A stretch of 64,000 nt of DNA from an uncultured Acidobacteriota bacterium. GTDB taxonomy: Bacteria > Acidobacteriota > UBA6911. Below, in pieces: positions 23,396 through 62,183 of the stretch. The notes below the pieces were generated by a model, which ran no database searches, was not told where the DNA came from, and worked only from the letters and a program-made list of their open reading frames with translations. The stretch is taken from contig CAWEJX010000012.1 of assembly GCA_963809485.1 (NCBI GenBank), positions 96,001-160,000 of the forward strand, read 5' to 3'. Made by a program: the position numbers and the translations under genes. Position 1 is the stretch's first letter. Each line of letters opens with the position of its first letter.

Positions 23396-25177
23396 ATGAA
23401 GAAGGGAATAAAGAGGTCACTATTGGGAGCATGCCTGATAGCAAGCATGTTTGGGATCAGATCAGGTTTTGCTCAGGTGACATTGGAGGTCATAAGTCCG
23501 CGGGCGGAAATTCCGCCTCCGCCGTCAATTCTTCACCCCGCACCTCGGCTTGCGGATCTGGCGGGCAAAAGAATTGGATTGATTGCCAATAACAAACCCG
23601 GTGCCGAGCTCTTTTTAACGAAGATCGAAGAATTGCTCAAGCAGAAGGTCCCTGATGCAAACATCGTGCGCCTTAAGATGATGAAGGTTTCGGCTGAACA
23701 AGCCAAGAAGCTGGCATCTCAAATCGACACCTTCATCCACAGCACAGGGGACTGAGGGGGATGTACGTGGCTGGTTAGCCGCGATACTATCGAACTGGAA
23801 AAGCTTGGCAAACCCGGCGTAGGCGTTGTCACTTCTACTTTTCTCAGTGATGCTCTTTCGGCGGCTCAAGACTCCGCTATGCCTACGGTGCGTCTTGTAG
23901 CGGTGCCTGCCAAAAATTACTATACGGCGCGGACTCAGGAACCGTTGATGAAGGACGTTGCGGCCGCGATTATTGATAAAGTCCTCGATGCATTAAAGCG
24001 TCCTTTGACCCCGGAAGAAACAGGTGCGGCTGAAGCCTCGAAGAAGGCGAAGAAGGACGAGGAAATACTAAAGTTCACCGGAGCGACCTATAACGAAGCA
24101 GCTGAGGCGCTTTACAAAGGATTTCTCGAGCGCCACTGGGCCGATGGATTGCCCATAATGCCTCCCACAAAAGAGGCTGTCGATTGGATGCTTACAGGAA
24201 CGAACCGCTCTCCGGAGGAAGTAATCGGCATTGTCGCCACAAAAGGCGGGAAGGCAACAATAAGAAAGATTGCCGCGAACGCTGTAATGGCGGGGGCAAG
24301 GCCGGAGTATTTGCCGGTGATCATTGCGGCTATGGAGGCCATCACAGGAGAAGGATTAAGCGCCCTGCATCTGCAGGCCTCCGCGGGATGCGTAAGCCCG
24401 CTCATTTTGGTCAACGGGCCGATCGCTCAAGAATTGGAGATAAATTCCGGGGCCGCCTATATGGGCCATGGATTCCGGGCGAATAACTCCATTGGACGTG
24501 CCGTCAGGCTGAGCATGATCAATTGCGGGCACATGTGGCCGCAACAAAACGATATGTGCTTGCTTGGACGGCAGGATGCGTTTGGGAATACGACTTTTGC
24601 GGAAAATGAGCAAGAGAGCCCATGGAAGCCGTACCACGTTGACTTGGGATTCAAACCGGAAGACAGCACCGTTACGGTAGTGAATTATATGCACCACAAA
24701 CGCGGTCCCGGCGGGCCGGTCGTGCCTGCAACTCCGTATGAGAGCCTGTTTGACCTGGCGAAAACAGTAGAGATCGTAAACACGCCTTTGGGATCGGCAT
24801 CCAATGAGGTCATAATAGCCATCGATCCGACTTTCGCCCACCAACTGTCCACGGTGGGGTTTAGCAAAGAGGATATTAAATGGTGGATCTTTTTGAATGC
24901 GCGCACTCCGTACTCGGAACTAAGAAAAGAAGAGAAAGAAAACCTTCGAAAGTCCATCGAAAGCGGGAAAACGCCCGCCTATCTTTGGACCTGGGGCGAA
25001 CAAGGGCAAGAGAAAAAAATTGAAAACATAGCGGATGTACCCTGCCTCCAGAAACCGGACCGGATTCACATTGCCGTGGTGGGTGGTTCGCCGGGATATT
25101 CGTATGTCTGGGAGTCACCGACGGGGCAGGCCACTAAACTGATACGCGGCGCCGCGCTCACTAAAGCAGGGCGTTAG
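23396..25177 (+). CDS. UGSC-family selenoprotein (593 aa), predicted Sec at TGA 23753-23755, motif GD-U-GG-C
   Basis: ORFs 23228-23755 and 23879-25177 are in frame with an open interval (UGGCTWLVSRDTIELEKLGKPGV); RBS GAGGAGG; signal peptide; SECIS-like hairpin. Confidence 0.88.
23760..23791 (+). promoter_or_regulatory. Putative bacterial SECIS
   Basis: CGUGGCU-GGUU-AGCCGCG stem plus lower GAU/GUA pairs; loop 17 nt after UGA. Confidence 0.7.
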
Positions 25178-25514
25178 TCCGCCCGGGATTTGTGCTCGGT
25201 TCGCAGCACGCCACGCGTGCTCTTTCAAGGAGCATCGTCCGGACGCAAAGAGCATGCAGCGCTGGCCAAAAGCGGCATGCGAATCGGCCACGGCTTCCAG
25301 CCGTGGCCTTGGCCTGTCCCCGCAAAGCGGGGCGAACGGGTGTTATTCCTGTTTTGCGGAGCATACAGAGAAAAGAAACTTTACAGAGCAGCTTTCGCAT
25401 GCTCCGCGTGACACTTCCCTTTTGCTGGTGGCCGCTTGCTGGAAGGACTCAGCCTGTGAGGGCGCATGGCCCGAAGCCCGTGGCTTTATGGGCACTGAGG
25501 TCACTGAAAGAACA

Positions 25515-26849
25515 TCAGCGTGTGCCTTTTTTATCTTCTTTGCCAAATGGGATATCCTGCTTGCCGGCCCCAGTCAGGACCTCTTCCCAATTGGCGGGCA
25601 GCTTCACCTCTCTGCTCACTGCTTTGGAACCGCCCCACACGGGAACGATCATGTTTTTCTCTCCCGGAGGGCCTCCTGCAACCAATATGAGCAGTTGATC
25701 GATGGAAGGCGTAGGGATCATCGCCTTCGACGCGTCGGTTGCCCCGGGAATGGAGTCAGACGCTCCAGGCGCTTCGCCGGACGGACGGTTGAACCTTTTT
25801 TTGAACTCGGCTGCGGGCGTCACGGCATGTTCGGCGATGTACTTTTTAAGTCCGTCCTTCGTCCATCCGTCACCCGCCAGTATGTCGACCGTGTCGTAAT
25901 TGAGAATCAACAGCAACACGCCCATGCGGGCGCTGTGCAATCCTACCAGTCGGTCCGCCAAGAGGCTCAGGAACTGCTCGGAGGTCAGACCCAATCCCAC
26001 AATCGCCTGATAGGATTCCGCCGTGACGACCGTAACGAGATTCGAGTCTTTTGAGTGGCCCAAATCGACGCGCAAAGGCTTCCAGGGATTCCCCTCTTCG
26101 ATTTCAGCAACACAATTCGCGAACTCGCCCGGTTGACCTAAAGTAGACATGTCGTTGACACCCGGCCAACTTCCGCCGATGTTGTTGATGATCATGTGCA
26201 GGGCCCGGCCGATTGTCGCATTTGACCGCCAGCCGCGTCCCAGGGCGTTTGACCCTGAATTGATGTCCAGTTGCCTGGCGATCGGGCCGCTGACGATGAT
26301 CAAGGGGGAGTCATTGCTTGTAGTGGTCGCCACCTGCGACAGGTTGAACTCCGGGTCGGACACGGCCTCGACAGCCGCAATGAGCACCGGCATGTACTCC
26401 GGCCGGCACCCCGCCATCACTGCATTGACGGCAATTTTCTCCACTGTGGCCTGCCCCCCCTTGGGCGGCACGGAGGCGATCACCTTTTCGGCGGGCATAT
26501 CAACGCCGCGCAGCATCTCCCTTACGAGTTCGGGCGTTGGAGGCACGATCGGCAAACCGTCGCCCCACCCGCGCCTGTAAAACAGATCGTTGACCTCCGC
26601 GAAAGCATCCTTGACGATCGTAATTTTCTCGGTTCTCCCCTCGACAAATTCTCCCGCCAAAGAGGGCCGCGTCTTGCCGGTAGCCGCCATGACAGTTTTG
26701 AGAAGTTTGTCGATATAGGCTCCATCTTCGCGTATGCCGGCCGGGTTATAGACTTCGATCACCTGATTGGCCGCAGCGAAAACGGAGGATGCCAGAACAG
26801 CATTGAGGATGAGGGCACGCACGATGGTACGCTGAGAAGTTGTCGGCAT
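25515..26849 (-). CDS. UGSC-family protein lacking the UxxC domain (signal peptide + large C-terminal domain)
   Basis: Signal peptide, VYNP, then directly WGDGLPIVPPT, AVNAVMAGC, SNATIGRA, VAGG; RBS AGGAG. Confidence 0.82.
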   Translation of the reverse strand: MPTTSQRTIVRALILNAVLASSVFAAANQVIEVYNPAGIREDGAYIDKLLKTVMAATGKTRPSLAGEFVEGRTEKITIVKDAFAEVNDLFYRRGWGDGLPIVPPTPELVREMLRGVDMPAEKVIASVPPKGGQATVEKIAVNAVMAGCRPEYMPVLIAAVEAVSDPEFNLSQVATTTSNDSPLIIVSGPIARQLDINSGSNALGRGWRSNATIGRALHMIINNIGGSWPGVNDMSTLGQPGEFANCVAEIEEGNPWKPLRVDLGHSKDSNLVTVVTAESYQAIVGLGLTSEQFLSLLADRLVGLHSARMGVLLLILNYDTVDILAGDGWTKDGLKKYIAEHAVTPAAEFKKRFNRPSGEAPGASDSIPGATDASKAMIPTPSIDQLLILVAGGPPGEKNMIVPVWGGSKAVSREVKLPANWEEVLTGAGKQDIPFGKEDKKGTR

Positions 26850-27101
26850 CCCATAGCTCCTGTTTCGAAATGTGTGGGCGCGCATCGTTACCCCGGAGGT
26901 CCATCGGCCGTCGCGAGGTCCGTGAGAATGGATGTGATACAAGGGCGACACAGGCATTGCGGCCGCATTTCGCAGCCGATTGTCCCGCAGGTTCCCGGGC
27001 TTTTGACTCGTTGGAACGAGTATCGCGCCCTAAACCATTCTAACGGCCGGCATGGGTCCATGCCCTTTGACATTTGGCTACGACAAAATCATGTGCGGAC
27101 G

Positions 27102-27460: not shown

Positions 27461-29137
27461 CTAGTAAATCTCGTAGTTGGGAACAAGAGCTTTATATTTT
27501 GCTACAAGCTTGTCCCAATTGCGGGGAAACTCGATCTTTTTGGTGACGAAGCTGTTTTCGAAACCGCCCGAGCTCTTAAGTGCCGCCATCCAGACGCCAG
27601 ACCCGCCCGAGACGACCACTATGAAATCCTCTTCTTTGAGCGGCGATCGAAATTCGCCCCGAGGCGCGTTTTTCAAAATGAACTCCCTGAGCCTCTTCTT
27701 CGACCACCCTTCGCTTGAAAGAATGCGAGCATGATCGGGGATGACCACCAGGCAGGACAGCGCGTTAGGACCAAAGCTCGCGAGTCTTTCGGCAATTCCC
27801 TGAGCCGTCGTCTGACTGGGGATGGTTTGGGTAAAGCTATTCGGAAAAAGTACAGTCAGCGCGCTGTCCTCTTTTTTCAGGCCGAAGTTGACATGCAGGG
27901 GTTCCCATGGGCTTTCTTCTTCATTCTCCCCGAGCACAAGGGTGTATTTTTGGGGATTGCCCATGACCCCCATGTCCTCGATACCCTTTCTCACCCCAGC
28001 GATGTTCTTGACCATTAGGCCGACGGCGCGCCCAATGGCGGCGTTGGCCATGTTCCCGGGACTGAAAACGCCCGAGCCGCAATTTATATTGAGATCATTG
28101 CGCACCCCGCCGTTGATGATGAAGAAAGGCGCCCACGAACCCGTGCTTGTTTGAAAGACATCGAATCTGGTTTTCGGATCCGCCAGAGCTTGCACCGCCG
28201 CTATCAGCACCGGCATGTAAGTAGGAAGGGCGCCGGCCATGACCGCGTTTACTGCAATTTTCTCAACAGTAGCCTTGCCTAACTTCGGTACCATCTTGGC
28301 CACCACCTGATCGGGCGGCAGGTCCGTCCCGGTCATCATTTCCGCCACCGCCTTTTCGGTTGGCGGCACAACCGGCAGGCCATCGGTCCAGCCCTTACTG
28401 TAGAAGAAATGGGTTACCTCCTGTTGGGTTCCCTTGAAAATGATCCGGGGAGCCTTCGCCGCTTTCGGCTTCGGCGATTTCTCTTCGGGCGTCAGCGGTT
28501 TAGTCAGTGCGGCAATAATTTCCGGCAGAACGGCAGTGATGCCGCCCTCGATATCTGCGGCAACAGTGGATTCACAAGCGATATTTTCAGCCAGGATTCT
28601 GACTCCCGGCATTCCTTTGACAGATGCTGCTGCCTGGGCATCCTTAACGAAACCATAATTCGCCAGTACCACGACCGGCGTGCCAAAGTCCTCGACGGAT
28701 ACTCCGTTGTACGCGAGGTACTTTGTGCAGGACCCTCAGTCACCGACCATGGCAATGACAGCGTCCATACTCTTTACCCAGGCGGCAAATTCATTGCCGT
28801 CTTTCTGTTCTGCCACGATGATGGTCGTCAAACGGGGTTCAAAGAAGCTGAACTCAGCAGTAGTATATTTTTCTTTCAGTTGCTTCGCAATCGCCTCTGC
28901 CATAGGCTTGGCGGCGCGCTTCCTGTTGGTAAACAGCCCGATTTTCTTGCCGGCCAAAGTATCCAGCCGGGGCGCGAGTCCCCTCGGCGGCACTGCATCC
29001 GCTTCCGCCCACGGGCTAAGGACCTCGTATTGATTGTCCGGTGCGGGGCTGGCGAACGGCGTTGGTGAAGGGGCCGTTACTACCAACGTGCAGAGGACAG
29101 TGGTGATCAAAACCGACGCAATTTTATGCATAAGCAC
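27461..29137 (-). CDS. UGSC-family selenoprotein (558 aa), predicted Sec at TGA 28738-28736, motif GD-U-GS-C
   Basis: ORFs 29137-28736 and 28672-27461 are in frame with an open interval (UGSCTKYLAYNGVSVEDFGTP); literal UGSC motif; signal peptide. Confidence 0.9.
28685..28724 (-). promoter_or_regulatory. Putative bacterial SECIS
   Basis: AAAGU/ACUUU, CCUCG/CGAGG, ACGGA-GUA-UCCGU; loop 33 nt after UGA. Confidence 0.6.
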
Positions 29138-29225: not shown

Positions 29226-30191
29226 CTAAGCGCAGGCCAGTATCGCTTTCTTTACCATCCCCGCGGCGACCTGAATCTTCCACTTGTTCAGCGCCAGAGC
29301 CCTCGCTTCCGTGACCGCAACCGTGCCGGCCGCCTGCGCGCTCGCCACATCGATCGTCTTGCCCGCTATGGATTCCTCCGCTTTGGTCGCCCGGTAGGGT
29401 TTGTTATATACCGCATTGAGACATATCCGGGCCGTTCCGCCCCCAATGGCCGCCGCACAATTCACGATGGGAAAGTCTATCGACGACCTCAGGGCAAACT
29501 TTACAAAGGCGCTTTTGACGCCGGAAGCCGGCGCGGGAACCTGAATCTCCTTTACGATTTCATCGTTCTCCAGCACCGTGGAACGAGGGATCTTTACCGC
29601 CCAGAACTCCTCGGCGTTGAGGGTTCTCTTCGACGTCACGATCCTGGCATTTAAAGCGACCAGCGCCGGCGCCGTGTCGCTTGGATTCACAGCCATGCAG
29701 GCTGAAACACCCCCGAATATCGAGTGATATCGATTCTCCCCGGCCATGGCAAAGCACGCTTTGCCGCCTTTCCTGATACAGAAAAACCTGTTGTCGTGAA
29801 GCCGGAAATACCAGCATCGATTCAGCTGGCAGATGTTGCCGCCGATCGTCCCCATTTCCCGGATGTGCGGCGAAGCGGTCTTATGGGCCGCCTCCGACAG
29901 CGCCGTCCATTTGCTTTTGACCACACTGCTCTTCGCAATGTCCTCGAGCCGGGCCAATGCGCCAATCCGCAGCATGCCCTTTTCTTCTTTGATGTAATCC
30001 AGGCTTGGCGTAATGGTCTTGAGGTTTACCAGAATCTGAGGATACATGGCATCCGGGAGTACCTCAAACCTCATGGTTCCCACAAGATCGGTGCCCCCGG
30101 CAAGTGCCCAGGCATTGGCTGCACGCAGGGCCGACACCGCCTCTTCTACCGTCTTGGCATTGACACGGGTGAATTTCTTTACGGTCTTCAT
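29226..30191 (-). CDS. XDH-family FAD/[4Fe-4S] subunit (PaoB/HcrB-like)
   Basis: AGGTDL, RCWYFR...CIRKGGKAC...CMAVNPSD, RSSIDF. Confidence 0.93.
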   Translation of the reverse strand: MKTVKKFTRVNAKTVEEAVSALRAANAWALAGGTDLVGTMRFEVLPDAMYPQILVNLKTITPSLDYIKEEKGMLRIGALARLEDIAKSSVVKSKWTALSEAAHKTASPHIREMGTIGGNICQLNRCWYFRLHDNRFFCIRKGGKACFAMAGENRYHSIFGGVSACMAVNPSDTAPALVALNARIVTSKRTLNAEEFWAVKIPRSTVLENDEIVKEIQVPAPASGVKSAFVKFALRSSIDFPIVNCAAAIGGGTARICLNAVYNKPYRATKAEESIAGKTIDVASAQAAGTVAVTEARALALNKWKIQVAAGMVKKAILACA

Positions 30192-30205
30192 TTTTGTCTA
30201 AGCTC

Positions 30206-32551
30206 CTATGCTTTGCCCAATGCTTTAAGGATCCTGTCCGGGGTGACCGGTTCAATGTCCACATACTTGCCTATGGCGTTGTATACGGCCGTAGGCATGA
30301 TGGTGTGGTTGCAGGCGCCGCCGGATTCCCCGATGCCGCAGCTTCCGTAAGGGGCATACGCCAGACCCGTTTCCACATAGGCGCAGTCAATGGATGCGAC
30401 GTCATTCATCACATTCACCGGGTAACCTATCAGGTTATCGTTGAGTACCACTCCTGTTTTTGGATCGTGATATACCGTCTCTTTGCTGGATCTCCCGAGC
30501 CCCATATAAGCGCCGCCGTACTGCTGGCCGTTAAACGCGTCCGGGTTTATTACTCTGCCTCCGTCATTGACACTAACCTGTTTTAGTATTTCTATCCCTC
30601 CCGTATCGGGGTCTACCTCTATTTCCACGAAGTGCGCTTGCCGGACCATGTTGTACTCATGTCCCACACCGCCACGCCCTGTGTGACCGGGAGTATAGTC
30701 CCATACATACAAATAATAAGTCAGGGCTGCTGCGATTTGCGCCAGTGTCTTTTTGTTTTCCGGGTGTGCCTTTTCAAAAATTACGCTGTCCTTGATGTCC
30801 AATTCCTCAGGCTTTTTATTCGGAAAGAACGCAGGCCTTGAAGGCATCAGATTTCCCAGTGTTCTGCGCAGGGGGGTTGGCTGGGTTACCATTTCAAGGA
30901 TCAACTGCTTCATCTTCCGCGCGGCTCTTGCCGCTGCGAGATTACTTCCGCTCATCCCCTGGGATCCGCCGCCCGGCTCCGATACGAGACCGTCGCGGCC
31001 TTCGAACGGTCTTATCCGAACGTCTTTATAATCGGCTCCCATTTCATCCGCCACCACCTGGGAGTAGGAGGTCTGTCCACACAACCCTACATCACATTGC
31101 GTAGCCAGGATATCAACCGTTCCATCGGCATTCACTCGGATGCCCATGCCGGCAGTCCCCACCGTATGCGCCCACCCGACGGTGGAGACATAGCCCATCC
31201 CGTGATAATTCCCATTGGGCAGAATTTTTGTCCCGGGCAAGTGCCATTTCTTATCCCACTCCATAATCTTCTTACCCAGTTCGTTCACCTCTTTGAAACT
31301 GTCTCTGTCCGTGTTAAATCCCTGCGGCTTCCTGATGTGTTCGTTGGCATAGGCCCAGTCGTGGCCTTCGCAGCCCTCATTGATCTGGGCGACCTTGCTT
31401 GGATCCATCCCCAGTTCGCCGGCTACGTGCTCCCATACCTGGGTTACAACTCTGGTGGCCGAGCAACCATGCTTGAAGCACTGGATGGGCGGCTTTGTAT
31501 GAGCCGCCACATCGCACGTAATGTATATATTGGGGATCGTGGTGCCTTCGTGTATTTTGTTGGTACTGGTTTGTGTAACCCAAGCTTCGTAGCATTTCAG
31601 TTGCATGGCGGTGATGCGGCCATCCAGTTTGAATCCTACTTTGAAGTAATAGCGCGACCGGGCGTCCTCGTCACAGCCCTCGAAGTGACTGTCATCGTCC
31701 AGGACCTTTACCGGACACCCCGTTCGCCTGGCTGCTATCACAGCAACCACTGCTGTATGGGGGTTCGAGCGTAAATTTCCCGTACCTCCAAAAATAGCTC
31801 CATTATAGGGCAGGTAAAGATGGATCTTGTGCACAGGGCTGTATTGCCGCAGAGCGTCCATCGCGTACAACCAGTTCTGGCCGTGATGCCAAACATCCAG
31901 ATAGTCTCCCCGGCATTCGGCCACTCCGACATGGCCCTCTACCCCGGCCCACACGTCCTGATCATCACCCGCTACCCATTCGACCACTTTGTCGGCCTCG
32001 GCAAATCCTTTTTCAATATCCCCAAACTTGATAGGAGGCTGCCTCGTCTTATTGTTCGACTTGGGATTTGTGTCCGGGCGCATTATTGGAGCGCCCGGCT
32101 TCAACGCTTCCTCAGGGTCCAGGATGACCGGCAGTTCTTCTATCTCGAGTTCTATCAGCCGCAATGCCCGGTCTACTATCGCCTCGCTTTCGCCTACCAC
32201 CACAGCTCCCATCATCCCCGGATACCAGTGGTTCGTGTCGGAGACAAGCGCTTGGCCTTGATACTTAGGCCAGGTTATCGTGGGGTCATCATATCGGAGT
32301 ACCGCTCGGACTCCGGGGAAAGCCTCGGCCTTGCTGGTATCCAGGCGTTTGATCTTAGCGTGGCCGTGGGGGGATCTAAGAAACTTCGCATATAGCATCC
32401 CCGGACGGTATATATCCCGGGTATACACTGCGCTTCCGCTCGCTTTTTCGTAACCATCCAGACGGCGTATGCGGCGTTTCCCGATCACACCGCCTTCCGG
32501 CACCGGCCAAAGCCACGGATATAAGGGTTCTCCCTCTTTTAGACCGTACAT
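30206..32551 (-). CDS. XDH-family Mo-binding subunit
   Basis: KASGSAVYTRD, RSPHGHAKI, VEIEVDPDTG, GIGE, AVYNAIG. Confidence 0.93.
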   Translation of the reverse strand: MYGLKEGEPLYPWLWPVPEGGVIGKRRIRRLDGYEKASGSAVYTRDIYRPGMLYAKFLRSPHGHAKIKRLDTSKAEAFPGVRAVLRYDDPTITWPKYQGQALVSDTNHWYPGMMGAVVVGESEAIVDRALRLIELEIEELPVILDPEEALKPGAPIMRPDTNPKSNNKTRQPPIKFGDIEKGFAEADKVVEWVAGDDQDVWAGVEGHVGVAECRGDYLDVWHHGQNWLYAMDALRQYSPVHKIHLYLPYNGAIFGGTGNLRSNPHTAVVAVIAARRTGCPVKVLDDDSHFEGCDEDARSRYYFKVGFKLDGRITAMQLKCYEAWVTQTSTNKIHEGTTIPNIYITCDVAAHTKPPIQCFKHGCSATRVVTQVWEHVAGELGMDPSKVAQINEGCEGHDWAYANEHIRKPQGFNTDRDSFKEVNELGKKIMEWDKKWHLPGTKILPNGNYHGMGYVSTVGWAHTVGTAGMGIRVNADGTVDILATQCDVGLCGQTSYSQVVADEMGADYKDVRIRPFEGRDGLVSEPGGGSQGMSGSNLAAARAARKMKQLILEMVTQPTPLRRTLGNLMPSRPAFFPNKKPEELDIKDSVIFEKAHPENKKTLAQIAAALTYYLYVWDYTPGHTGRGGVGHEYNMVRQAHFVEIEVDPDTGGIEILKQVSVNDGGRVINPDAFNGQQYGGAYMGLGRSSKETVYHDPKTGVVLNDNLIGYPVNVMNDVASIDCAYVETGLAYAPYGSCGIGESGGACNHTIMPTAVYNAIGKYVDIEPVTPDRILKALGKA

Positions 32552-32562
32552 TTTCTCCTCCT

Positions 32563-33225
32563 CTAGGCGTTCCCGATGACTTCCTTAATCGCTATGATGT
32601 GTTGTGTATAGGTGCCGCACCGGCATATGTTGCCCCCCAGCGCGTCCCTCATATCCGCTTCAGTCGGCTTGGGAATACGGTCCAGCAGCGCCTTGGCCGT
32701 TACCACAAATCCCGGCGTGCAGTAGCCGCACTGCATGCAATGGTTCAGAACGTAAGCCTCGATGAGTTGCGGATTGTTAATGGCAACACCTTCTGCCGTC
32801 TCTATGGCCATGCCGTCACAATCCGCCGCAAACGTCATGCAGGAAAGCACCGGCCGCCCGTTCATAATCACCGTGCACGATCCGCAGGCCCCGTAACCGT
32901 TGCACATATCTTTGATGGATATAAAGCCCAGCTGATCGCGAAGCACATCGCGCAGCATCCATTCCGGCTCGACCCGGAGCTCATACTTATGCTTGTTCAC
33001 GGTGAATTTTATCGTTTGGGCAGCTGCCGAGGCGGCCGGCGCGACGGTGCCCGCCGGAGCGGCACCGGCTCGACTCGCCGCCTGGGGATCAGCGGCAACC
33101 ACAGTGGCGCCGGCTCCGGTACCGAGGATGGCTACAGAGCTGACAGCAAATTCCCGGCGCGACATCGGTCCCAACCCTGTTCTTTCACATTCTTCGCTTT
33201 TCTTTTTTTCTTCCTCTTTCGACAT
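32563..33225 (-). CDS. XDH-family [2Fe-2S] subunit with Tat signal (PaoA-like)
   Basis: SRREFAVSS plus hydrophobic stretch; CNGYGACGSC, QCGYCTPG, NICRCGTY. Confidence 0.93.
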   Translation of the reverse strand: MSKEEEKKKSEECERTGLGPMSRREFAVSSVAILGTGAGATVVAADPQAASRAGAAPAGTVAPAASAAAQTIKFTVNKHKYELRVEPEWMLRDVLRDQLGFISIKDMCNGYGACGSCTVIMNGRPVLSCMTFAADCDGMAIETAEGVAINNPQLIEAYVLNHCMQCGYCTPGFVVTAKALLDRIPKPTEADMRDALGGNICRCGTYTQHIIAIKEVIGNA

Positions 33226-38785: not shown

Positions 38786-40504
38786 ATGCGTTTCGGAAAA
38801 TTTCTGATATTGTGCTTCCTCGAATTGAGTCTATTTCCACTGCATGCTCAGGAACCCAAAGTTACTGTAATGAACCCGCTGGGAACTCCCCCTCCGATCC
38901 GGCTGGTTCCCATGGCGCCGCGACTCGATACGCTCGACGGCAAGACCGTGTATTTTGTCGATTCGCGCTATGTGGGAGGAGATATCTTCCTGAAGGAGAT
39001 GATGTCCTGGTTTTCCGTGAACATGCCCAAAGTTAAGCTTGAATTCAGGCAGAAGGCCGGCGCCTACGCGGAAAGCGATCCCCAGTTGTGGGACGAGATC
39101 CGGCAAAAAGGGGATGCTGTAATTATGGCGATCGGGCATTGAAGTACCTGCACGCCGGCGGTCGTCGGCCATTGTCTCGAGCTCGAGAAACTCGGCAAGC
39201 CCACTGCGCCTGTTGTTACGAACAGCTTTGTGGCGTTGGCAAGAGGCAATGCCCATAAGCGCGGCATGCCGGGAGAACGTTTCACCTTTGTTCCGCACCC
39301 TGTCTTCGGGAAGACGCCGCAGGAAATGCGGCGCGATATTGAAGGGAAGGATCCGGTCACGGGAAGACCGGTCATGCAGGAAATCGTGGAAGCCCTGACC
39401 AAGCCGCTGACTGCGGAAGAAAGGAAGGATGGATTCCTGCAGAGGCCGCCAAATCCCCGGTTCCTTCCCCCCGATACTGCGGACAACCTGCAGCGATATT
39501 TTCACGAACATGGAATGACGGACTATCTCCCGGTCATTCTTCCTACCGGGGAAAAGGTAGCCGCCATGCTCAAGGGAACCAGTCATGACCGCAACGAGGT
39601 GGTTGGAAAAATGGCGGGAGGCGCGTTCGACCCCTGGGAATACACGGTGGAACAGGTGGCCGTGAATGCCGTCATGGCCGGTGCGCGGCCGGAATACTTG
39701 CCGGTTATCCTCGCACTGGCATCTAGCGGGCAGGCATCGCTGTACAGTTCCACAAACTCATTCGCATATTCCGTGGTGGTCAACGGGACGATTCGCGACG
39801 AGATAAAAATGCACTACAGGGTCGGAGCGATGGGGCCGTTCAGCCAGGCGAACGCAACGATTGGAAGAGCATGGACTTTGATGTCGAGAAACCTGGCAAA
39901 CGGAGGCATCGTCGGAGAGACATACCTTGGGTCCACCGGGAACAATCTGAATTACAACAATCTCGTTGTCGCCGAGAATGAAGCGGACAGTCCGTGGAAT
40001 TCACTGAGTGTGCAATTAGGATACAAACCGGGGGAGAGCGTCATCAGCATCTTTACCGGTTTGGGAATGCAGCCGGGACAATTTGCGAAGGGGGGCGGCA
40101 TTTCGGTAAAGCCTCGGTATGACGAACAGTTTCTGAGCGTAATAAGCAATTTCACTACGCTGTTTGGAGCTTTGGTAGTCTGTGATCCCCTCATTGCCAA
40201 GGCTCTCAAGGAACAGGGCTACGATACAAAAGAAAAGCTGATTGACTGGCTTTATAAAAATGCCGTCCATACGGTGCGGGAATATAAGGACGCCAGTTTT
40301 GTGCTGACATTTGATCTTCCTCGAGCTCAGAAGGGCGTTGAGCCCTTCGCCTCGTGGTTCAAGCTGCCGGATGACGCAAAAATTCCAATCTTTATAAAGC
40401 CGTCGGATCTCTCGATTGTGGTGGCAGGCGGCCAGACGCAGGCCAGGTTCCAAGCGGGGAATCTACGCTATACGGCGAGTTTTTCTGTTGACAAATGGAG
40501 ATAA
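38786..40504 (+). CDS. UGSC-family selenoprotein (572 aa), predicted Sec at TGA 39140-39142, motif GH-U-ST-C
   Basis: ORFs 38786-39142 and 39230-40504 are in frame with an open interval (USTCTPAVVGHCLELEKLGKP); colinear with uninterrupted paralog 4377-6218. Confidence 0.9.
39150..39175 (+). promoter_or_regulatory. Putative bacterial SECIS
   Basis: GCCGGC-GGUC-GUCGGC; loop 17 nt after UGA. Confidence 0.65.
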
Positions 40505-46105: not shown

Positions 46106-46119
46106 TTTTGTCTAAGCTC

Positions 46120-48468: not shown

Positions 48469-48483
48469 TTTCTCAGCCCTCCT

Positions 48484-49146
48484 CTAAGCGTTCCCGATGA
48501 CTTCCTTAACCGCTATTATGTGTTGTGTGTAGGTCCCGCACCGGCATATGTTGCCCCCCAGCGCGTCCCTTATATCCGCTTCAGTCGGCTTGGGAATACG
48601 ATCCAGCAGCGCCTTGGCGGTTACCACGAATCCCGGCGTGCAGTAGCCGCACTGCATGCAATGGTTCAGAACGTAAGCCTCGATGAGTTGCGGATTGTTA
48701 ATGGCAACACCTTCTGCCGTCTCTATGGCCATGCCGTCACAATCCGCCGCAAACGTCATGCAGGAAAGCACCGGCCGCCCGTTCATAATCACGGTGCATG
48801 ATCCGCAGGCCCCGTAACCGTTGCACATATCTTTGATGGATATAAAGCCCAGCTGATCGCGAAGCACATCGCGCAGCATCCACTCCGGCTCAACCCGAAG
48901 CTCATACTTATGCTTGTTCACGGTGAATTTTATCGTTTGGGCAGCTGCCGAGGCGGCCGGCGCGACGGTGCCCGCCGGAGCGGCACCGGCTCGTTTCGCC
49001 GCCTGGGGATCAGCGGCAACCACAGTGGCGCCGGCGCCTGTACCGAGGATGGCTACAGAGCTGACAGCAAATTCCCGGCGGGATATCGGTCCCAACCCTG
49101 TTCTTTCACTTTCTTCGGTTCTCTTTTTTTCTTCCTCTTTCGACAT
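48484..49146 (-). CDS. XDH-family [2Fe-2S] subunit with Tat signal
   Basis: SRREFAVSS; Cys motifs as in 32563-33225. Confidence 0.93.
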   Translation of the reverse strand: MSKEEEKKRTEESERTGLGPISRREFAVSSVAILGTGAGATVVAADPQAAKRAGAAPAGTVAPAASAAAQTIKFTVNKHKYELRVEPEWMLRDVLRDQLGFISIKDMCNGYGACGSCTVIMNGRPVLSCMTFAADCDGMAIETAEGVAINNPQLIEAYVLNHCMQCGYCTPGFVVTAKALLDRIPKPTEADIRDALGGNICRCGTYTQHIIAVKEVIGNA

Positions 49147-51138: not shown

Positions 51139-51274
51139 GCTCGAAATCTCCTTAATCGTCACTTACGATATATGAAAATCTGCAGATAAAGCAATCCGCT
51201 CACAGTCCAATCGTGCGATCGCCCGTTCGCGTGCTTCCTGCGCGGCACACATCTCCGTTACACTGCTTTTCGGC

Positions 51275-52147: not shown

Positions 52148-54141
52148 ATGAAGAATAAAAAGAGCATCGTCATTTCAGGTGTCCTTATATTTCTCCTGGG
52201 CTTATCCTCCTTTGTCGCCGGTACGGTACCCGAAACATACGGGAACAAAGTAAAGGCGGGAGAGTTTGTCGTCGAGCCTCCAACGCTCATTTGCCTGGGG
52301 TTTGAATGGCATATCGACGGCGATGATAACCGTAATGCCACCGTGGATGTCCATTATCGTAAAAAGGGAGATACGGCCTGGAAACAGGCACAGCCGCTTT
52401 TGCGCCTCCAACGTGAGCAGGCAGGCGGGGACGCAACAATTCAAGATTATGTGATTCCAAACATGTTTGCCGGAAGCATATTGGATCTGGAACCTGATAC
52501 CGAGTATGAATGCAAGTTTCAGCATGAACGATCCGGACGGCGTAATTGGAACCAGGCAGAAAATCGTGTCTGTACGCACACGTCCCGAACCGAAACCTTT
52601 TGCGGGCGGAAAGACCTTGCACGTGTATCCTGCCGAGTATAAAGGTTCCAAAGAAAAGCCGGCCTTTGTAGGATTGAAATCGGCGTATGAAGAGGCTGAG
52701 CCAGGCGATATTATCCTGGTGCATGCCGGCCTTTACCAAAGCGACCGCACCAAATATCTGGACTATCTGAGAAAGGGGGTCGGATCAGACGTATTTGGAA
52801 CATCCAGGCTTACGAAGAGCGGAACAGCCGAAAAGCCCATTGCGATCAAGGGTGCAGGGGATGGCGAGGCCATTTTCGATGGCAATGCCTGCTCTCTCTT
52901 TTTCGATGTCATGGGCGCGAATTATCTATACTTCGAGGGGCTTACCTTCCGCAACGCCGATGTCGCTTTCCTCACGGGTTTGAAGAACGTGGCTGGCTGC
53001 AGCGGATTGACAATTAAGAAATGCCGTTTTGAGAATGTGGCCGAGGCCATCAGGGGAACCTATCAAGGGTCAAAAAACTATTACATTGCCGATAACGTGA
53101 TCATCGGCCGGAACAACCCAACAAGGCTGCTTGGCATGATCAGCAGAGAGGTTCGATATGACACTCAACCCGGCTTCCCCCCCTCGGTAGGCGGCCCGAA
53201 CGGATCCAACAATGCAATCACCGTCGCAGGGCAGGGCCACGTTGTATGTTACAACTATGTTGCAAATTTCTTCGACGGAATAGACACGAATCAATCATCC
53301 GGTGCACCGGCGGAAGGACAGGTATTGTTGCCGCCTATCGCGATCGACTTCTACAACAATTATATTTCCAATATGTCCGACAATTGTTTCGAAACGGATT
53401 GCTCTACGCACAACGTCCGCGTGATGCGCAACATGTGCATCAACAACGCCCATGGCACCTTGAGCTCACAGCCCGTCTATGGTGGACCGGTATACTGGAT
53501 ACGCAATATCGTTTACCATGCTCCCGATCGAGGAGCTCTAAAGATGTATGCAAGACCGGCAGGTGTGATCTTCTATCACAATACGTTCTGTGCCGAAGCC
53601 ATTGTTGGGCAACCCTCTGGATTGGGAGCTTCGAACATACACTTCCGCAACAACCTCATTCTTGGAGAGAATCCCGAATCCATGGTTAACTATCTTCCCA
53701 AGGATTTCAGGGGAATTTTCCTTATGGACACCTATACTTCCTATTCCACTGCCGATTATGACGGATTTCGTCCAAATGAGGGGCACGACATGCAGTTCGC
53801 CTGGAACTCACCGGCCGGCGGTGCACGGATCGATTACAAAAATCCACGGGAGGTGCATGTATTTAAAACTCTTAAAGAGCTTTGCGCAGCCACGGGCCAG
53901 GAATGTCATGGGATATTAGTGGATTACGATATATTCCAGAATGTAAAAAAAGCGGATATGGCCAACTTCAGCAAAATTTACGATGCTAAAGACATGGATT
54001 TTCGCCTTAAGCCCGGATTCTGTAGCGGTTGACGCCGGATGCATCCTCCCCAACATCAACGACGGTTTTACCGGAAAAGCTCCGGACCTCGGGGCATTGG
54101 AAGTCGGGCAGCCCGTGCCTATCTATGGGCCGCGGCCGTGA
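52148..54141 (+). CDS. Secreted FnIII + beta-helix protein, two frameshifts (~52522, ~54018)
   Basis: Fragments align with 41072-43087 through APDLGALE...GPRP*. Confidence 0.82.
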
Positions 54142-54221
54142 TGTTCTGAACCAACAACTGTGAAAGATTGATCCGAATCCATTGGAAGGCTTCCGCGAAA
54201 GCAAATAGAGAGGAGGAATCT

Positions 54222-55799
54222 ATGAAAGCCAAAAAACAAAAACGGAATCTCACAAGGAGAGATTTTCTGACAACGGCAGCCGTCAGTGCAGGCGCAACCG
54301 CCCTGGTTGGGGTCGGTCCGGAAGAAGCCGGAGCCGTCCAACAAAGCGATGTCCGAAAATGGGACTACGAGGCGGGGATCGTTATCCTGGGCATGGGCGG
54401 AGCGGGCCTTACCTCAGCTATAACGGCTCACGATCAGGGAGCCGACGTGCTCATGCTCGAGAAGGCGTCGGAAGCTCACGCCGGAGGCAACACCAGGGTA
54501 TCCATGCAGGGGGTTTGGTGTCCCCCAAACCTGGAGGAAGCCCTTACCTATCACAGAGCGCTCAATGGCCGATATCCGGTTCCCGATGAAGTGTTTCATT
54601 CCTATCATGAATACACTACAAAGAGCTTCGAATGGCTGAAAAAAATCGCCGACGGCAAGGTCAACCAGCAACTCAGCACCGGCAAGGGAGAGTACCCCGA
54701 GTTCCCTGGAGCAATGAGCAGCTACATCTGTTCGTCCAAAGAAGGATATGGATACCAGAGGCTTTGGAAGGTGCTCAAGGGCAACGTCGACAAGAGAAAA
54801 ATAAAGATCCTGTATGAAACGCCCGGAGTTGATCTGGTCCAGGATTCCAGGACCCGGGAAATCCGCGGTGTAGTCGCGCAGAGGCAGGGCAAAAAGATCT
54901 ATGTCAAAGCCAAAAAGGCTGTGATCCTGTGCACCGGCGGGTTCGAAAACAATCAGGAGATGATCCGTGATTACCTTCTGCTGCCCTGCGGATATCCGCT
55001 TGGCAGCCCATACAACACCGGAGACGGGATAAGGATGAGCCAAGCCGTAGGCGCCGATCTGTGGCACATGGCTAACATGTGTGGGGTTTCACTCAGCTTT
55101 AGAGCCCCGGGTAACGGCTGGGCCTTTGGCGCCGGATTTTCCATGCCCTCCGGCGGATATATCTTTGTTGCCAGTGACGCGACGAGGTTTGTGAACGAAA
55201 ACCAACCCTCCAGGCACGGCAAGGTGGCCTACCACGGCACCTATGTTCATCTTCCCCTGCCTTTGCCCATACACGCAGTCTTTGATGAAAATGGGAGAAA
55301 GGGCGGCCCGCTTTATCAGACTGAGGAATACTGGTGTTGGTATGCCGTGATTGAAAAGTATAAGTGGAGCGCGGACAGCAGCGCTGAATTGGAAAAGGGC
55401 TGGATCCTTAAGGGCGATACCATAAGGGAGTTGGCCGCAAAAATGGGCAAGGACCCGGATACTTTGGAAAAGACTGTAGCCAAATGGAATCAGTCTTGCG
55501 CGGCAGGGAGCGATTCAGAATTCGGCCGGCCGGCTAAAAGAATGGCTCCCATCAAAAATCCGCCCTACTATGCCATGGAACTGGTGCCCGCCTTCACCAA
55601 TACATTGGGAGGCCCCCGGCACAATCAGCATGCTCAGGTGTTGGACACAAACCGGAAGCCAATCCCGAGACTGTACTCTGCCGGAGAACTGGGTTCCATA
55701 TTCAGTTATCACTACCAGGGAGCCGGAAACTTTGGGGAGTGTGTGGCTTTCGGACGAATCGCCGGTGAACGCGCTTCTGCTGAGAAGCCATGGTCTTAG
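54222..55799 (+). CDS. Tat-exported FAD-dependent oxidoreductase
   Basis: TRRDFL; paralog of 34953-36548; RBS AGGAGG. Confidence 0.9.
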   Translation: MKAKKQKRNLTRRDFLTTAAVSAGATALVGVGPEEAGAVQQSDVRKWDYEAGIVILGMGGAGLTSAITAHDQGADVLMLEKASEAHAGGNTRVSMQGVWCPPNLEEALTYHRALNGRYPVPDEVFHSYHEYTTKSFEWLKKIADGKVNQQLSTGKGEYPEFPGAMSSYICSSKEGYGYQRLWKVLKGNVDKRKIKILYETPGVDLVQDSRTREIRGVVAQRQGKKIYVKAKKAVILCTGGFENNQEMIRDYLLLPCGYPLGSPYNTGDGIRMSQAVGADLWHMANMCGVSLSFRAPGNGWAFGAGFSMPSGGYIFVASDATRFVNENQPSRHGKVAYHGTYVHLPLPLPIHAVFDENGRKGGPLYQTEEYWCWYAVIEKYKWSADSSAELEKGWILKGDTIRELAAKMGKDPDTLEKTVAKWNQSCAAGSDSEFGRPAKRMAPIKNPPYYAMELVPAFTNTLGGPRHNQHAQVLDTNRKPIPRLYSAGELGSIFSYHYQGAGNFGECVAFGRIAGERASAEKPWS

Positions 55800-58295: not shown

Positions 58296-58363
58296 TAGAA
58301 GAAGCTCTGGGAAAACCTGGAAGAAACTTGTGACCGCGGGGCGAGGTTTCGCGACAGAAACTA

Positions 58364-58597: not shown

Positions 58598-58602
58598 TAG
58601 AA

Positions 58603-60264
58603 TTATCTCCCGGCCTTGGTCAGGGTCGCGCCCGTTATCTTTTTCGTAACATGGGCACCTTCTCCGTAATCCCATATCATGGAATACCCCGGCACACCGC
58701 CGGTCACGGCGATGGAAATATTCTTCTCCGGTACTCCGGTTTTTTGGGCAAACCAAGCCTGCAAATCCTTTCTGTTGGTAAAGGATGTTTTCAGCCCTTG
58801 GGCGGCTTCCGGATGAAACCAAAGCCAATAACTGTTGTAAATAGCACCACTGGTATGAGTCATTTCTTTAACCATACCATCCAAAATTGACTGCTCTGTC
58901 CAGGTATCAACTGCTCCACCCCCAACCTTTTGGCCCGAAGCTCCAATGTAGGAGCCGACCTTGGTCACCGTCACAGCGCTGTCTCCCTTCGCAAAACCCT
59001 GGCTCATACTATACGGCTCCCACGGGTTCATCTCCTCATTTTCGGCAAAGGTGTAAAAGGTATGCGCCGACGGCCGGCCGGTCAGGGCCATGTCGTTCAC
59101 TACCGGCCAAGTGTGGCCGATATTGCGTGTTGCCAATCGAACGGATCGCCCAATCGTACTATTGGCTCGCCAGCAATCGCCCAAAAAACCAATCCCGGAA
59201 TTCATGTTGATTTCCTTAGCTATGGGACCGTTCACCATAATGATGAGAGTAAAACCACCCGAAGAACCCATCATGTGCCAGAATCCCATGCTCCACTGTC
59301 CTCCCGCCGAAATAGCCTCCATGGCCGCGATGATCACTGGAAGGTACTCCGGCTTCGCCCCTGCCATCACCGCATTGATAGCAATCTTTTCAATAGTGGC
59401 GATGCCAAATTTCATGGGAATTTTTCCTATTACTTCGCTGGGAGAACGGCTCGTTCCTTTGAGCATCTTGGCAACAGCCTCTCTGGTAGGGGGTACCAGA
59501 GGCAGTCCATCGCTCATCTGGTTATCGAGAAACGACTGGTTGAATTTTTCCTCAGCGTCCGCATAATTGGCGCCAGTAATGCGGATAGGGGGGTAGTCGA
59601 CTGCGGTTTTTTGCTGAGGCTTGGCCTCCTCTTGTGTTAGGGGGGTCGTCAGAGCCTTAACAATGGGATCCAAAGCGGCTTCAGCAAGCGGTCTTACCTC
59701 TTTTACAGTTCCCCGATTCCGGTACCATTTATCGGAAGGTATTGTTACTATCCGGATGTTGGGCATCGACCAATCAGCAGCAGCTGATTTGGCATCTGCA
59801 AGGAATTGCGAGCTGACCAGAAATACTCCAGGCGCTCCATACTTTTCCATCTGCATAGTGCGGCGGGAACCCCACCACGTGCAGGTCCCTCAGTCTCCTA
59901 TGGCAAAAATAAAAGCATCACACTCCTTTGCTATCTTTTGAAACTCTTCTTCCCTTGGATCTGCTGTTGATCCCGCCTTATATTGCGTTAAAATAGTTGC
60001 GGTTGGGTATTTCTGCTTCAGCAGTTCTTCCAGTGCGGTAATTAGATTTCTCACACCAGATTTGCCGTTATTCAGCAAAGCAACCTTCTTACCGGCCAGA
60101 TCAGGAATACGAGGCGTCAGTCCTATGGTTTTCGCCGGCTCAATCACGCCCATGGGGTTGAGCAACTCCAAAGAGACCTTTTCGCTCGCCGGTCTGGCCG
60201 AACGCCCGCCCAGAAATAAACCGGCGGCAAGCAGCAAAGAAACCGACAGCAGTTTATTTTTCAT
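58603..60264 (-). CDS. UGSC-family selenoprotein (553 aa), predicted Sec at TGA 59892-59890, motif GD-U-GT-C
   Basis: In-frame ORFs with an open interval UGTCTWWGSRRTMQMEK; signal peptide. Confidence 0.9.
59851..59884 (-). promoter_or_regulatory. Putative bacterial SECIS
   Basis: CUGCA/UGCAG lower stem; GUGGUGGG-GUU-CCCGCCGC upper stem; loop 19 nt after UGA. Confidence 0.72.
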
Positions 60265-60340
60265 TCTCTGATCTCCCAATTTTGTTAAGGTTGGATTCCA
60301 ATTCTCCAAATTATTTATTCGGGATAGGTGCACACTTAGG

Positions 60341-60465: not shown

Positions 60466-60527
60466 CGGGACAAAGAGCGGCGAGGCCGCGATTGAGTGTC
60501 CCGCTATCGGCACATCTATGCTCGAAA

Positions 60528-62183
60528 TTATCGCCCGGCTTTAGTCATGGTTGCGCCCGTGATCTTTTTTGTGACATGGGCAACCGTCTCGTAGCTCCAC
60601 AACAGGGAATAACCCGGCACACCGCCGGCCACGGTAATGGAAAAATTCTTTTCCGGTATGCCGGTCTTTTGAGCAAACCAACCCTGTACATCCTTGCTGG
60701 TTTTATAGCCCATTTTTGCTAAACCTTGAGCACATTCCGGATGAAACCATACCAGATAGCTTCCTCTGCCTTTGCCGATCGATTTAACCATACCGTCCAA
60801 AATCCCCTGCTCCGTCCAGATAGCGACCGCTCCACCTCCAAACATATTGGCTCCGGATCCACCATAGGAGCCGACCTTGGTCACCGTCACTGTACTGTCC
60901 CCCTTGGCAAAACCCTGGCTTACCTGATAGGGGTCCCAGGGGCTCATCTCTTCATTTTCGGCAAAGGTGTAAAAGGTATGCGGCGACGTCCGCCCGGTCA
61001 GGGCCATGTCGTTCTCCGCCGGCCACGTGTGGCCGATATTGCGCGTCGCCAATCGAACGGACCGTCCAATGGTATTGTTGGCACGCCAGCAATCGCCCAG
61101 GTAACCAATCCCGGAATTCATGTTGATTTCCTTGGCTATAGGACCGTTCACCTGAATGGCAAGAGTAAAGGCACCCGCCGATCCCATCATGTGCCAGAAT
61201 CCCATCCCGGTATACCCTGGCGCCACAAATGCCTCCATCGCCGCGATTACCACCGGAAGGTACTCCGGCTTTGCTCCGGCCATCACCGCGTTGATCGCAA
61301 TCTTTTCAATAGTGGCCGTGCCGGATTTCATGGGGATTTTGCCTATCACTTCGCCCGGAGAACGACTCGTCCCTTTGAGCATCCGGGCAACGGCTTCCCT
61401 GGTCGGGGGCACCAGAGGCAATCCATCGCCCATCTTGTTTTCCAGAAACGACGCGTTGAACTTTTCCACCGCGTCCTCATAACTATCGCCCGTAATGCGA
61501 ACGGGCGGGTATTCGACTGCGGATCTTGTCTGAGGCTTGGCCTCCTCAGCCGTAAGAGGCTTCGTCAGTGCGTCCACAATGGGATTAAAAGCGTCTTCAA
61601 CGAGGGGTCTTAACTCTTGTACCGTTCCCCGAAGCCTGTACCACTTTTCGGAAGGAAATGTTACCATCCGCATGTTGGGCATCAACCAATCAACAGCGGC
61701 TGATTTTGCGTCCTTCAGGAAATTCGAGCTGACCAGAAGTACTCCAGGCGCTCCATACTTTTCCATCTGCATTGTGCGGCGGGCACCCCACCACGTGCAG
61801 GTCCCTCAGTCTCCCATCGCATATACAAAGGCATCGCATCCCTTCGCGATCGACTGAAAATGTTCTTCCTGTGCCTGTGCCTGTATTCCCGGGTTAAATC
61901 CTCGCTGAATAGTTACGCCCGGATACTTCTGCTTCAGCATTTCTTCCAGTATGTCGAATAGCTGGGGCACACCCGGTTTGATGTTATGCACCAGAGCAAT
62001 CTTCTTACCAGAATAATCCGAAAGACGAGGCCTCAGTGCTAAATATGGCTCAGGCTCAATCATGCCCATGGGATTGAGCAGCTCCAAAGTAACCTTTTCG
62101 TTCGCCGGTTTGGCCGTCGAAAATCCGCAAAAAACCAAAGCGGCAGCTAGCAATAAAGAAATCGCTACCAGTTTATTTTTCAT
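60528..62183 (-). CDS. UGSC-family selenoprotein (551 aa), predicted Sec at TGA 61808-61806, motif GD-U-GT-C
   Basis: In-frame ORFs with an open interval UGTCTWWGARRTMQMEK; tandem paralog of 58603-60264. Confidence 0.9.
61767..61800 (-). promoter_or_regulatory. Putative bacterial SECIS
   Basis: Same stems as 59851-59884; differences fall only in the loop (GUG) and internal loop (ACAA). Confidence 0.72.

Follow-up and report, generated by a model that had tools for sequence, protein, structure and literature searches.

The stretch of DNA analyzed here (the window, 64,000 nt in length) derives from an uncultured Acidobacteriota bacterium, whose genome comprises 6.04 Mb in 21 contigs with 55.6% GC, 95.7% completeness and 7.3% contamination. 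The window contains five pairs of open reading frames (ORFs), and the original prediction held that each pair is in fact a single gene encoding a selenoprotein, interrupted by one in-frame TGA that stands for selenocysteine (Sec, U). Translation of the five intervals indeed gives a single internal stop each, in the sequence contexts listed as motifs in Table 1, and reading through this stop gives products within the predicted range of 551-593 aa. The TGA falls into one homologous alignment column in all five ORFs, as had been claimed from their identical position. With the TGA translated as U, the products can be aligned over their entire length, both among themselves and to two uninterrupted paralogues in the window, which are colinear across the site. 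Both of these paralogues contain neither Cys nor Sec at the site and hence are not Cys homologues. A further, degenerate member of the family is located inside the interval of the five genes and had been overlooked, and gene 5 has a near-identical second copy elsewhere in the genome (C8:382290-383987).

Table 1. Members of the UGSC-type family in the window and the hairpins located downstream of the in-frame UGA (positions refer to the 64,000-nt stretch).
Feature	Position	Strand	Description
Predicted Sec gene 1	23396..25177	+	593 aa; U120; TGA 23753-23755; motif GDUGGC; stop TAG
Hairpin, gene 1	23766..23783	+	7-bp stem; loop GGUU; 17 nt after UGA; -9.8 kcal/mol
Predicted Sec gene 2	27461..29137	-	558 aa; U134; TGA 28736-28738; motif GDUGSC; stop TAG
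Extended hairpin, gene 2	28677..28734	-	loop GUA 33 nt after UGA; -23.6 kcal/mol alone
Predicted Sec gene 3	38786..40504	+	572 aa; U119; TGA 39140-39142; motif GHUSTC; stop TAA
Hairpin, gene 3	39154..39169	+	6-bp stem; loop GGUC; 17 nt after UGA; -9.0 kcal/mol
Predicted Sec gene 4	58603..60264	-	553 aa; U125; TGA 59890-59892; motif GDUGTC; stop TAA; modelled with AlphaFold2
Hairpin, gene 4	59860..59878	-	8-bp stem; loop GUU; 19 nt after UGA; -12.3 kcal/mol
Predicted Sec gene 5	60528..62183	-	551 aa; U126; TGA 61806-61808; motif GDUGTC; stop TAA
Hairpin, gene 5	61776..61794	-	8-bp stem; loop GUG; 19 nt after UGA; -12.3 kcal/mol
Non-Sec paralogue	4356..6218	+	620 aa from GTG 4356, ATG at 4377; motif lost (GQLDTNA); C-terminal domain conserved
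Non-Sec paralogue	9794..11617	+	607 aa; motif lost (GDAGQAA)
Degenerate family member	25515..26957	-	480 aa; signal peptide; 'IEVYNP' start; without UxxC; family profile covers the C-terminal domain only (positions 232-566)

Conservation and predicted decoding of the in-frame UGA

The UGSC profile PF24696 (cut-off 25 bits) matches the N-terminal ~170 residues of all seven full-length window proteins with 53-104 bits, the five Sec genes accounting for the scores of 89-104 bits. The match runs across the TGA and the sequence is conserved on both sides of it, so that the frame is not only open but also homologous past the stop. The proposed membership in the UGSC-type family therefore holds for this profile, while the equivalog model NF041046 (147 positions, cut-off 125 bits) assigns only 43.6-90.6 bits to the seven proteins and 69-91 bits to the five Sec genes. 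Moreover, with 551-620 aa the window proteins exceed the single-domain size of this model, and an additional domain of ~340 aa follows the UGSC domain. The scores below the cut-off together with the extra domain identify them as a long-form subfamily and not as classical UGSC proteins.

The machinery for the incorporation of Sec is encoded in the genome. The genes selD (345 bits), which contains an in-frame TGA of its own, selA (565 bits) and selB (391 bits) all score above the curated cut-offs, as does a tRNA-Sec (70.6 bits) that is classified by ARAGORN as SeC(tca); the window itself contains no tRNA. A family hidden Markov model (HMM) was built from the seven window proteins and run over the six-frame translation, which resulted in 72 frames. 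The TGA is found at the same HMM column in 44 sites of the genome, pieces counted, and another residue in 13; in the HMM alignment none of the family members of this genome carries Cys there. In other genomes, the ORFs spanning the column in 80 loci show TGA in 70/97, Cys in 7/97 and another residue in 20/97 cases. The titles of these loci name Phycisphaerae, Acidobacteriota, Dehalococcoidia/Chloroflexota, Desulfobacterota, Nitrospiraceae, Proteobacteria, Latescibacterota and Clostridiales. Homologues with Cys in place of U thus exist outside of this genome: besides the seven ORFs, which include members of a tandem array of GHUSTC, GHCAGC and GHCSTC paralogues (locus L087), two public full-length relatives (P0047, P0048) contain CxxC at the column. 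All sets pooled, 106 U, 7 C and 32 other residues were counted, and a resolving Cys is present three residues downstream in 96% of the Sec forms. Two of the TGAs are spanned by contigs from RNA libraries, that of gene 4 by X2 record 10 and that of gene 5 by X2 record 11 and X3 record 23 (~95% identity). As these contigs stem from relatives and may contain DNA, they indicate at most contiguous transcripts and not read-through.

Hairpins of the SECIS type (selenocysteine insertion sequence) follow the UGA in all five genes (Table 1). For bacterial SECIS elements (bSECIS) an apical loop of 3-9 nt, a stem of 4-16 bp, a G in the first two loop positions at 16-37 nt after the UGA and a minimum free energy (MFE) of <= -7.5 kcal/mol are given in the part of the source available to us (PMC13188914). 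Four of the five window genes satisfy all four constraints with an uninterrupted stem and gene 2 does so by its extended hairpin, the 63 nt from the UGA folding at -25.2 kcal/mol (z -2.78). Genome-wide, and with uninterrupted stems only, all four constraints are satisfied at 23/44 Sec sites versus 0/13 non-Sec sites. The best uninterrupted hairpin begins 14-17 nt from the U of the UGA in 31/43 Sec-site cases, and a GU is present in the apical loop of 34/43 Sec-site hairpins versus 2/10 at the sites of non-Sec paralogues. The fold energy of the 42 nt after the codon, expressed as percentile among all in-frame segments of the own gene, has a median of 0.16 at Sec and of 0.61 at non-Sec sites (Mann-Whitney p = 1.4e-4). 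MFE z-scores of the whole 60-63 nt after the UGA do not discriminate the five sites, the SECIS signal being position-specific, and an Rfam scan of the window at gathering scores returned no match.

The stems vary by subfamily and their registers are slightly shifted, as exemplified by GCCGGC/GCCGGC with loop GGUC, GUGGUGGG/CCCACCAC with loop GUU, UCGGC/GCCGA with loop CGUGA and GUGUUCA/UGAAUAC with loop GUC. The long hairpin shape of gene 2 is common to the 'KYLAY' subfamily, in which a compensatory change from CCUCG/CGAGG to CCUCA/UGAGG is observed. An alignment of 61 sequences (A3) combines four of the five window sites with 57 of the 75 sites from the loci; it omits 14 long-hairpin 'KYLAY' sites, two sites of L047, L054:8054 and the near-duplicate L024. 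A subgroup of 30 sequences from other genomes that share one register (A4) has a 7-bp stem with 94.3% of its cells paired and double changes in 4/7 pairs. Neither value was reached by any of 500 shuffles (0/500), and sliding the partner by 1-3 columns reduced pairing to 19-50%, in agreement with covariation of the stem.

Together with the demonstrated Sec-type recoding signals, Sec machinery, Sec/Cys pairs, two-domain architecture and export signals, these data indicate that the five ORF pairs are very probably five intact genes, predicted from their sequence to yield two-domain selenoproteins by SelB- and hairpin-dependent decoding of the UGA. In such a mechanism SelB with Sec-tRNA(Sec) would read the in-frame UGA as Sec, directed by the SECIS-type hairpin in the coding sequence. 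The apical loop of this hairpin starts with G or GU and is reached 17-33 nt downstream of the UGA. Some observations weigh against this interpretation. The bSECIS energy criterion is missed with an uninterrupted stem at 21/44 Sec sites of the genome, and folding of single sequences gives a weak signal, with z-scores of -1.39, -2.78, +0.31, -1.20 and -0.69 for the 60-63 nt after the UGA in genes 1-5. Furthermore, the pairing of A4 already amounts to 91.5% after shuffling, reflecting a modest variation within this subgroup.

Nonsense-mutated pseudogenes or unrelated adjacent ORFs could be suspected in view of the 24 partial or multi-TGA pieces of the family in the genome and of other broken genes in the window. 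However, the codon and its column are shared by 44 sites among the paralogues and by 70 relatives of several phyla, each intact gene contains exactly one TGA with a single Pfam domain across it, and conservation extends to both sides of it; this reading is refuted by the comparative data and retains practically no probability. It is also very improbable that the UGA is read as an amino acid other than Sec, i.e., as Cys or Trp by near-cognate read-through or by local reassignment. Cys-containing members do occur and presumably function, but TGA remains the most frequent stop codon of this genome, ending 1549/3570 stop-to-stop frames of at least 300 codons, which shows that the codon is not reassigned, and the five window genes themselves terminate with TAA or TAG. 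Moreover, the Sec machinery is complete, the hairpin with its G/GU loop is found at the canonical distance in Sec sites and is absent from non-Sec paralogues, and the U:C ratio is 106:7 in the sampled family with no Cys form in this genome.

Sec decoding in bacteria competes with termination, and a selenium-dependent dual output might be envisaged in which the UGA mostly terminates translation to release an N-terminal fragment of ~120 aa, the remainder of ~410 aa is started at the first Met after the UGA, and the full-length Sec protein is a minor or conditional product. In close relatives, gene callers placed a Met start a short distance behind the TGA (MQMEKYG...), and the two domains are encoded as separate genes in some genomes. 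However, the TGA does not coincide with a domain boundary but is placed within the UGSC domain, about two thirds of the way along the Pfam model, so that termination at this point would cut the fold. The split forms break after the UGSC domain and their UGSC gene still carries the TGA, and the subfamilies do not share a conserved Met downstream of the TGA. We consider a dual output improbable, and the selenoprotein reading of the five genes is strongly supported.

Two-domain architecture and structure models

The products consist of a signal peptide, present in most copies of this genome, the UGSC domain and the ~340-aa C-terminal domain. The AlphaFold2 model of the full product of gene 4 has a predicted local distance difference test score (pLDDT) of 86.6 and a predicted template modelling score (pTM) of 0.87. 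In this model the N-terminus is disordered, an alpha/beta domain covers residues ~30-215, and Sec is placed at the junction of the strand 117-123 and the helix 126-141. The modelled N-terminal domain aligns to generic Rossmann/flavodoxin-like chains (Z 9-10.4), including LacI/periplasmic-binding half-domains, receiver domains, short-chain dehydrogenases and B12-binding domains, and no thioredoxin-fold entry is among the 50 matches listed for this predicted model. The N-terminal UGSC domain is accordingly modelled as a flavodoxin/Rossmann-like alpha/beta fold with U-x-x-C at the start of a helix, in contrast to the thioredoxin-like fold guessed for UGSC in the accessible part of an earlier study (PMC2398784).

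The C-terminal domain, folded alone from an alignment of 55 sequences, is predicted with a pLDDT of 90.1 and a pTM of 0.92. It matches no Pfam family even at E <= 10 and no NCBIfam family, and a sequence-profile search of the PDB identified no relative (best E 0.05). Foldseek returned only weak partial matches for the full model (TMq <= 0.21) and nothing at E <= 0.001 for the C-terminal domain, for which class I fumarate hydratase was the best match (E 6e-3, TMq 0.30). The best hit of VIA-align wide was likewise the fumarate hydratase alpha subunit (Z 5.5, 186 residues, root-mean-square deviation 5.4). Since a Z of 5.5 is below the usual level of unrelated models, this result neither assigns a known fold nor proves a new one. 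A protein atlas search with a non-Sec paralogue led to unannotated clusters only. Near-invariant residues of the domain are located in the motifs DGLP..PPT, NAVMAG..PE, VNGP, RAN.TIGR and AENE..SPW. A putative conserved pocket is assigned to D, T, N, N, R, N, E and W of DGLP, NAVMAG, RAN..GR and AENE..PW. Its conserved polar residues are equally kept in Sec and non-Sec members, and only U, C and two other columns differ between the two groups. In three loci from Chloroflexota, Tectimicrobiota and Dehalococcoidia metagenome-assembled genomes (MAGs), two neighbouring genes encode the UGSC domain, TGA included, and the C-terminal domain separately (L061:6001-9465, L066:5962-8517, L092:784-2511), which supports a functional link between the two parts.

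Paralogue expansion and relation to known selenoproteins

Of the 72 frames of the genome, 48 are full-length, 36 with a single TGA at the column and 12 without any, and 24 are partial or multiply interrupted pieces. The original prediction had described five Sec paralogues in about 40 kb as a striking expansion, and its real size, with 36 intact Sec copies, is about sevenfold larger and the expansion genus-wide. In each of the 18/18 genomes of the same genus that were searched, 11-45 matches to PF24696 are found, and the 58 of the present genome are the most. Among 12 genomes of other genera of the class, 10 have no PF24696 match and two have one each, in short open frames (177 and 266 aa). 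The family is amplified throughout the genus. Its members are clustered, with 19 on contig 12 and 15 on contig 4. According to a quick maximum-likelihood analysis covering the 48 intact paralogues, the five window genes are distributed over four clades, and at least 5-6 changes between Sec and non-Sec forms are required.

Just upstream of the window, at C12:92787-93303 (-), lies the one short stand-alone UGSC gene of the genome (129.5 bits for PF24696, CDUGSC), which appears to be frameshifted near its 3' end. An in-genome scan of Sec/Cys pairs for further selenoproteins resulted mostly in repeat or antisense noise and in 2-3 plausible additional candidates. One candidate frame, C1:339996-341498 (+), contains RICGVUPASHH and has four in-genome paralogues with Cys at the TGA position; we take this motif to be the N-terminal metal-binding motif of the large subunit of [NiFe]-hydrogenase, with the TGA at the second Cys. 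A second one, C3:6175-7059 (+), contains AFCCEFUAYSAAD and is presumably MvhD/HdrA-like.

Among 8000 public candidate proteins scored, 4320 match the family at E <= 1e-10. The closest ones (72-99% identity) are fragments of ~410 aa that begin at the first Met after the TGA, which indicates that gene callers cut these genes, as the prediction had assumed for standard gene calling. The closest public record over the full length (73% identity) is titled as a Phycisphaerae MAG. Those public members that are named are called 'hypothetical protein', and most are unnamed.

The classical UGSC form has a size of ~150 aa. It shares with the window members the PF24696 match above the cut-off, which all seven show, the place of the UxxC motif and the lack of an assigned function, while the window Sec proteins differ by their length of 551-593 aa, the signal peptide and the extra domain of ~340 aa; the motif itself varies among them between UGGC, UGSC, USTC and UGTC. 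Proteins containing UGSC are an established family of selenoproteins whose function is unknown, as stated in the parts of the reports at hand (PMC13188914, PMC2398784, PMC1976440). Sec forms outnumber Cys forms in the family studied here (106:7) as they do in an ocean metagenome (255:21, from the available part of PMC2398784). The same portion of this Global Ocean Sampling selenoproteome of 2008 describes, for a small number of aquatic organisms, a fusion of UGSC with a functionally uncharacterized conserved domain, 'UGSC/Unknown_1' (Fig. S1A; PMC2398784), which may correspond to the architecture described here. The export signals, the expansion of paralogues and the wide phylogenetic range observed here are not mentioned for this fusion in that portion of the text (PMC2398784). 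In the literature on UGSC, Phycisphaerae and Methylomirabilota selenoproteins, supplements excluded, neither the long form nor its export nor this expansion was found to be described. The long form is a variant within a known selenoprotein family and not a new kind of system.

The largest selenoproteomes listed in the accessible parts of the respective reports comprise 57 genes in the Olavius delta-1 symbiont (PMC1976440) and 63 in a Methylomirabilota MAG (PMC13188914). The 57 genes of the delta-1 symbiont are distributed over 27 families (21 known and six new), with 2-12 genes in several of them, according to the same part of that report (PMC1976440). The present genome resembles these organisms in being of an anaerobe type and rich in Sec genes. 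However, the figures for the delta-1 symbiont and Methylomirabilota refer to whole selenoproteomes, while here one family alone accounts for 36 intact Sec genes, in addition to selD. A broader interpretation, which we take seriously even though the balance is somewhat against it, would be that this genus harbours the largest single-family selenoprotein expansion described to date, with at least 36 intact Sec paralogues in the present genome. The family would then represent a new class of selenoenzymes, mostly exported and composed of two domains, of which the one responsible for catalysis or binding would adopt a fold without a solved relative. Each paralogue would be specialized for a different substrate of anaerobic catabolism in the periplasm. 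The class would be hidden across many phyla because gene callers cut the genes at the UGA. The 36 paralogues on their own come close to the record totals published so far (57-63).

UGSC proteins are among the most abundant selenoproteins of aquatic metagenomes, and no function has been known for them since their discovery. The fusion to, or adjacency with, a large conserved domain offers a first handle on UGSC function, and the long form is widespread, mostly Sec-containing and masked by annotation. The presence of 36 Sec paralogues in one genome also bears on the limits of selenoproteome size, on the selenium need of such anaerobes and on the diversification of SECIS elements inside coding sequence. 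To our knowledge, selenoproteins exported via the general secretory (Sec) and twin-arginine translocation (Tat) pathways are uncommon. The C-terminal domain represents a good target for structure determination.

Export signals, genomic neighbourhood and possible functions

A hydrophobic signal-like N-terminus is present in 38/48 intact members of this genome, some being Tat-like and some having a lipobox Cys. The window is a redox island and contains several gene sets of the xanthine dehydrogenase (XDH) family, two KstD/flavocytochrome-like FAD proteins, a glycyl-radical enzyme with its activase and an acyl-CoA dehydrogenase. The 2Fe-2S subunits encoded at 32563-33225 (-) and 48484-49146 (-) have an N-terminal twin-arginine motif (SRREFA), like the periplasmic aldehyde oxidoreductase PaoA, and Tat motifs also occur in the FAD_binding_2 proteins at 34953-36548 (-) and 54168-55799 (+). 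A FAD_binding_2 gene lies within 10 kb of 15/57 family members (random mean 3.0, maximum 10 in 1000 draws) and an XDH large subunit within 10 kb of 14/57 (random mean 5.7, maximum 14 in 1000 draws).

We tentatively propose, with low confidence, that the proteins may act as substrate-specific selenol/thiol oxidoreductases in the periplasm, beside the Tat-exported molybdo- and flavoenzymes. U and C would form a selenenylsulfide or selenol-thiol redox couple, with substrate binding being the task of the C-terminal domain and UxxC donating or taking up two electrons. The site of action would be the periplasm, among the Tat-exported molybdenum hydroxylases and flavoenzymes. The XDH-family, KstD/flavocytochrome-like and glycyl-radical enzymes nearby would point to aromatic, heterocyclic and organosulfur compounds as candidate substrates. 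The paralogues may have diversified for different substrates, and members without both U and C might keep the function of the C-terminal domain only. PrdB is an alpha/beta protein that serves a substrate-specific reductase, and GrdB and PrdB are cytoplasmic and part of defined multi-protein complexes. These substrate-specific selenoproteins B of the glycine, betaine and proline reductases (PF07355) serve as a working analogy only: PrdB is listed with UxxC in the part of the ocean survey available to us (PMC2398784), whereas PF07355 does not match the family even at E <= 10, so that no sequence relation is found, and no such partners are conserved at the family loci.

Several points speak against a redox function in the periplasm. 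Export is not family-wide, a signal-like N-terminus being present in only 3/58 public full-length relatives and in 32/62 members from the loci. The co-localization counts are inflated and their independence is overstated, since the family members are themselves clustered. No gene partner is conserved across the 80 foreign loci; the top neighbour cluster (11 loci) consists of antisense ORFs of family genes and is followed by AMP-binding proteins, an ATP-binding cassette (ABC) exporter and short-chain dehydrogenases/reductases (SDR) with 8/80 loci each. No conserved Cys, His or metal site was seen in the C-terminal domain. Three tandem Sec paralogues at C4:340996-348037 (+) read WUGAAT and contain no resolving Cys, although they retain the TGA and a hairpin with the stem GUGUUCA/UGAAUAC and the loop GUC. 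Finally, 12 intact paralogues have no redox motif, so that the redox chemistry may be accessory.

This last observation would also suit an explanation in which the proteins are not enzymes at all, which we regard as possible, if doubtful. They might be periplasmic ligand-binding or chaperone proteins, such as solute receptors or maturation and escort factors for exported molybdo- and flavoenzymes, with UxxC being a redox switch or a carrier of sulfur or selenium. The N-terminal domain resembles periplasmic-binding/LacI half-domains and receiver domains (Z 9-10), but these fold matches are generic. ABC, SBP_bac_5 and TctC transport genes adjoin in 4-8/80 loci, but no transporter is consistently adjacent. 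Similarly, large sets of paralogues with signal peptides, such as the many found here, recall expanded receptor families, but export signals are absent from many relatives. Moreover, the high Sec:Cys ratio would argue for catalysis rather than for a structural or switch role. We consider this explanation and the assignment as periplasmic oxidoreductases to be about equally probable.

Within the redox island, two near-duplicate three-gene cassettes of the XDH family, encoding FAD, Mo and 2Fe-2S subunits, are located at 29226-33225 (-) and 45140-49146 (-). The genes at 41072-43087 (+) and 49186-51162 (-) encode proteins of 671 and 658 aa with signal peptides and similar N-termini, apparently paralogues, which match no Pfam or NCBIfam family; the same holds true for the products of 20263-21603 (446 aa) and 52467-54032 (521 aa). 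The glycyl-radical enzyme, which is pyruvate formate-lyase (PFL)-like, and its activase (634-4099, +) are encoded directly upstream of the non-Sec member at 4356-6218. The enzyme is nearest to the choline lyase/hydroxyproline dehydratase group and scores under all equivalog cut-offs. Two XDH large-subunit genes appear to be broken or frameshifted (12063-13879 and 15176-17591, +). In the former, the frame 12063-12992 ends at a TGA and many stops follow before a MoCoBD_2 piece at 13307-13879; in the latter, 15176-15613 overlaps with 15597-17591 in a different frame.

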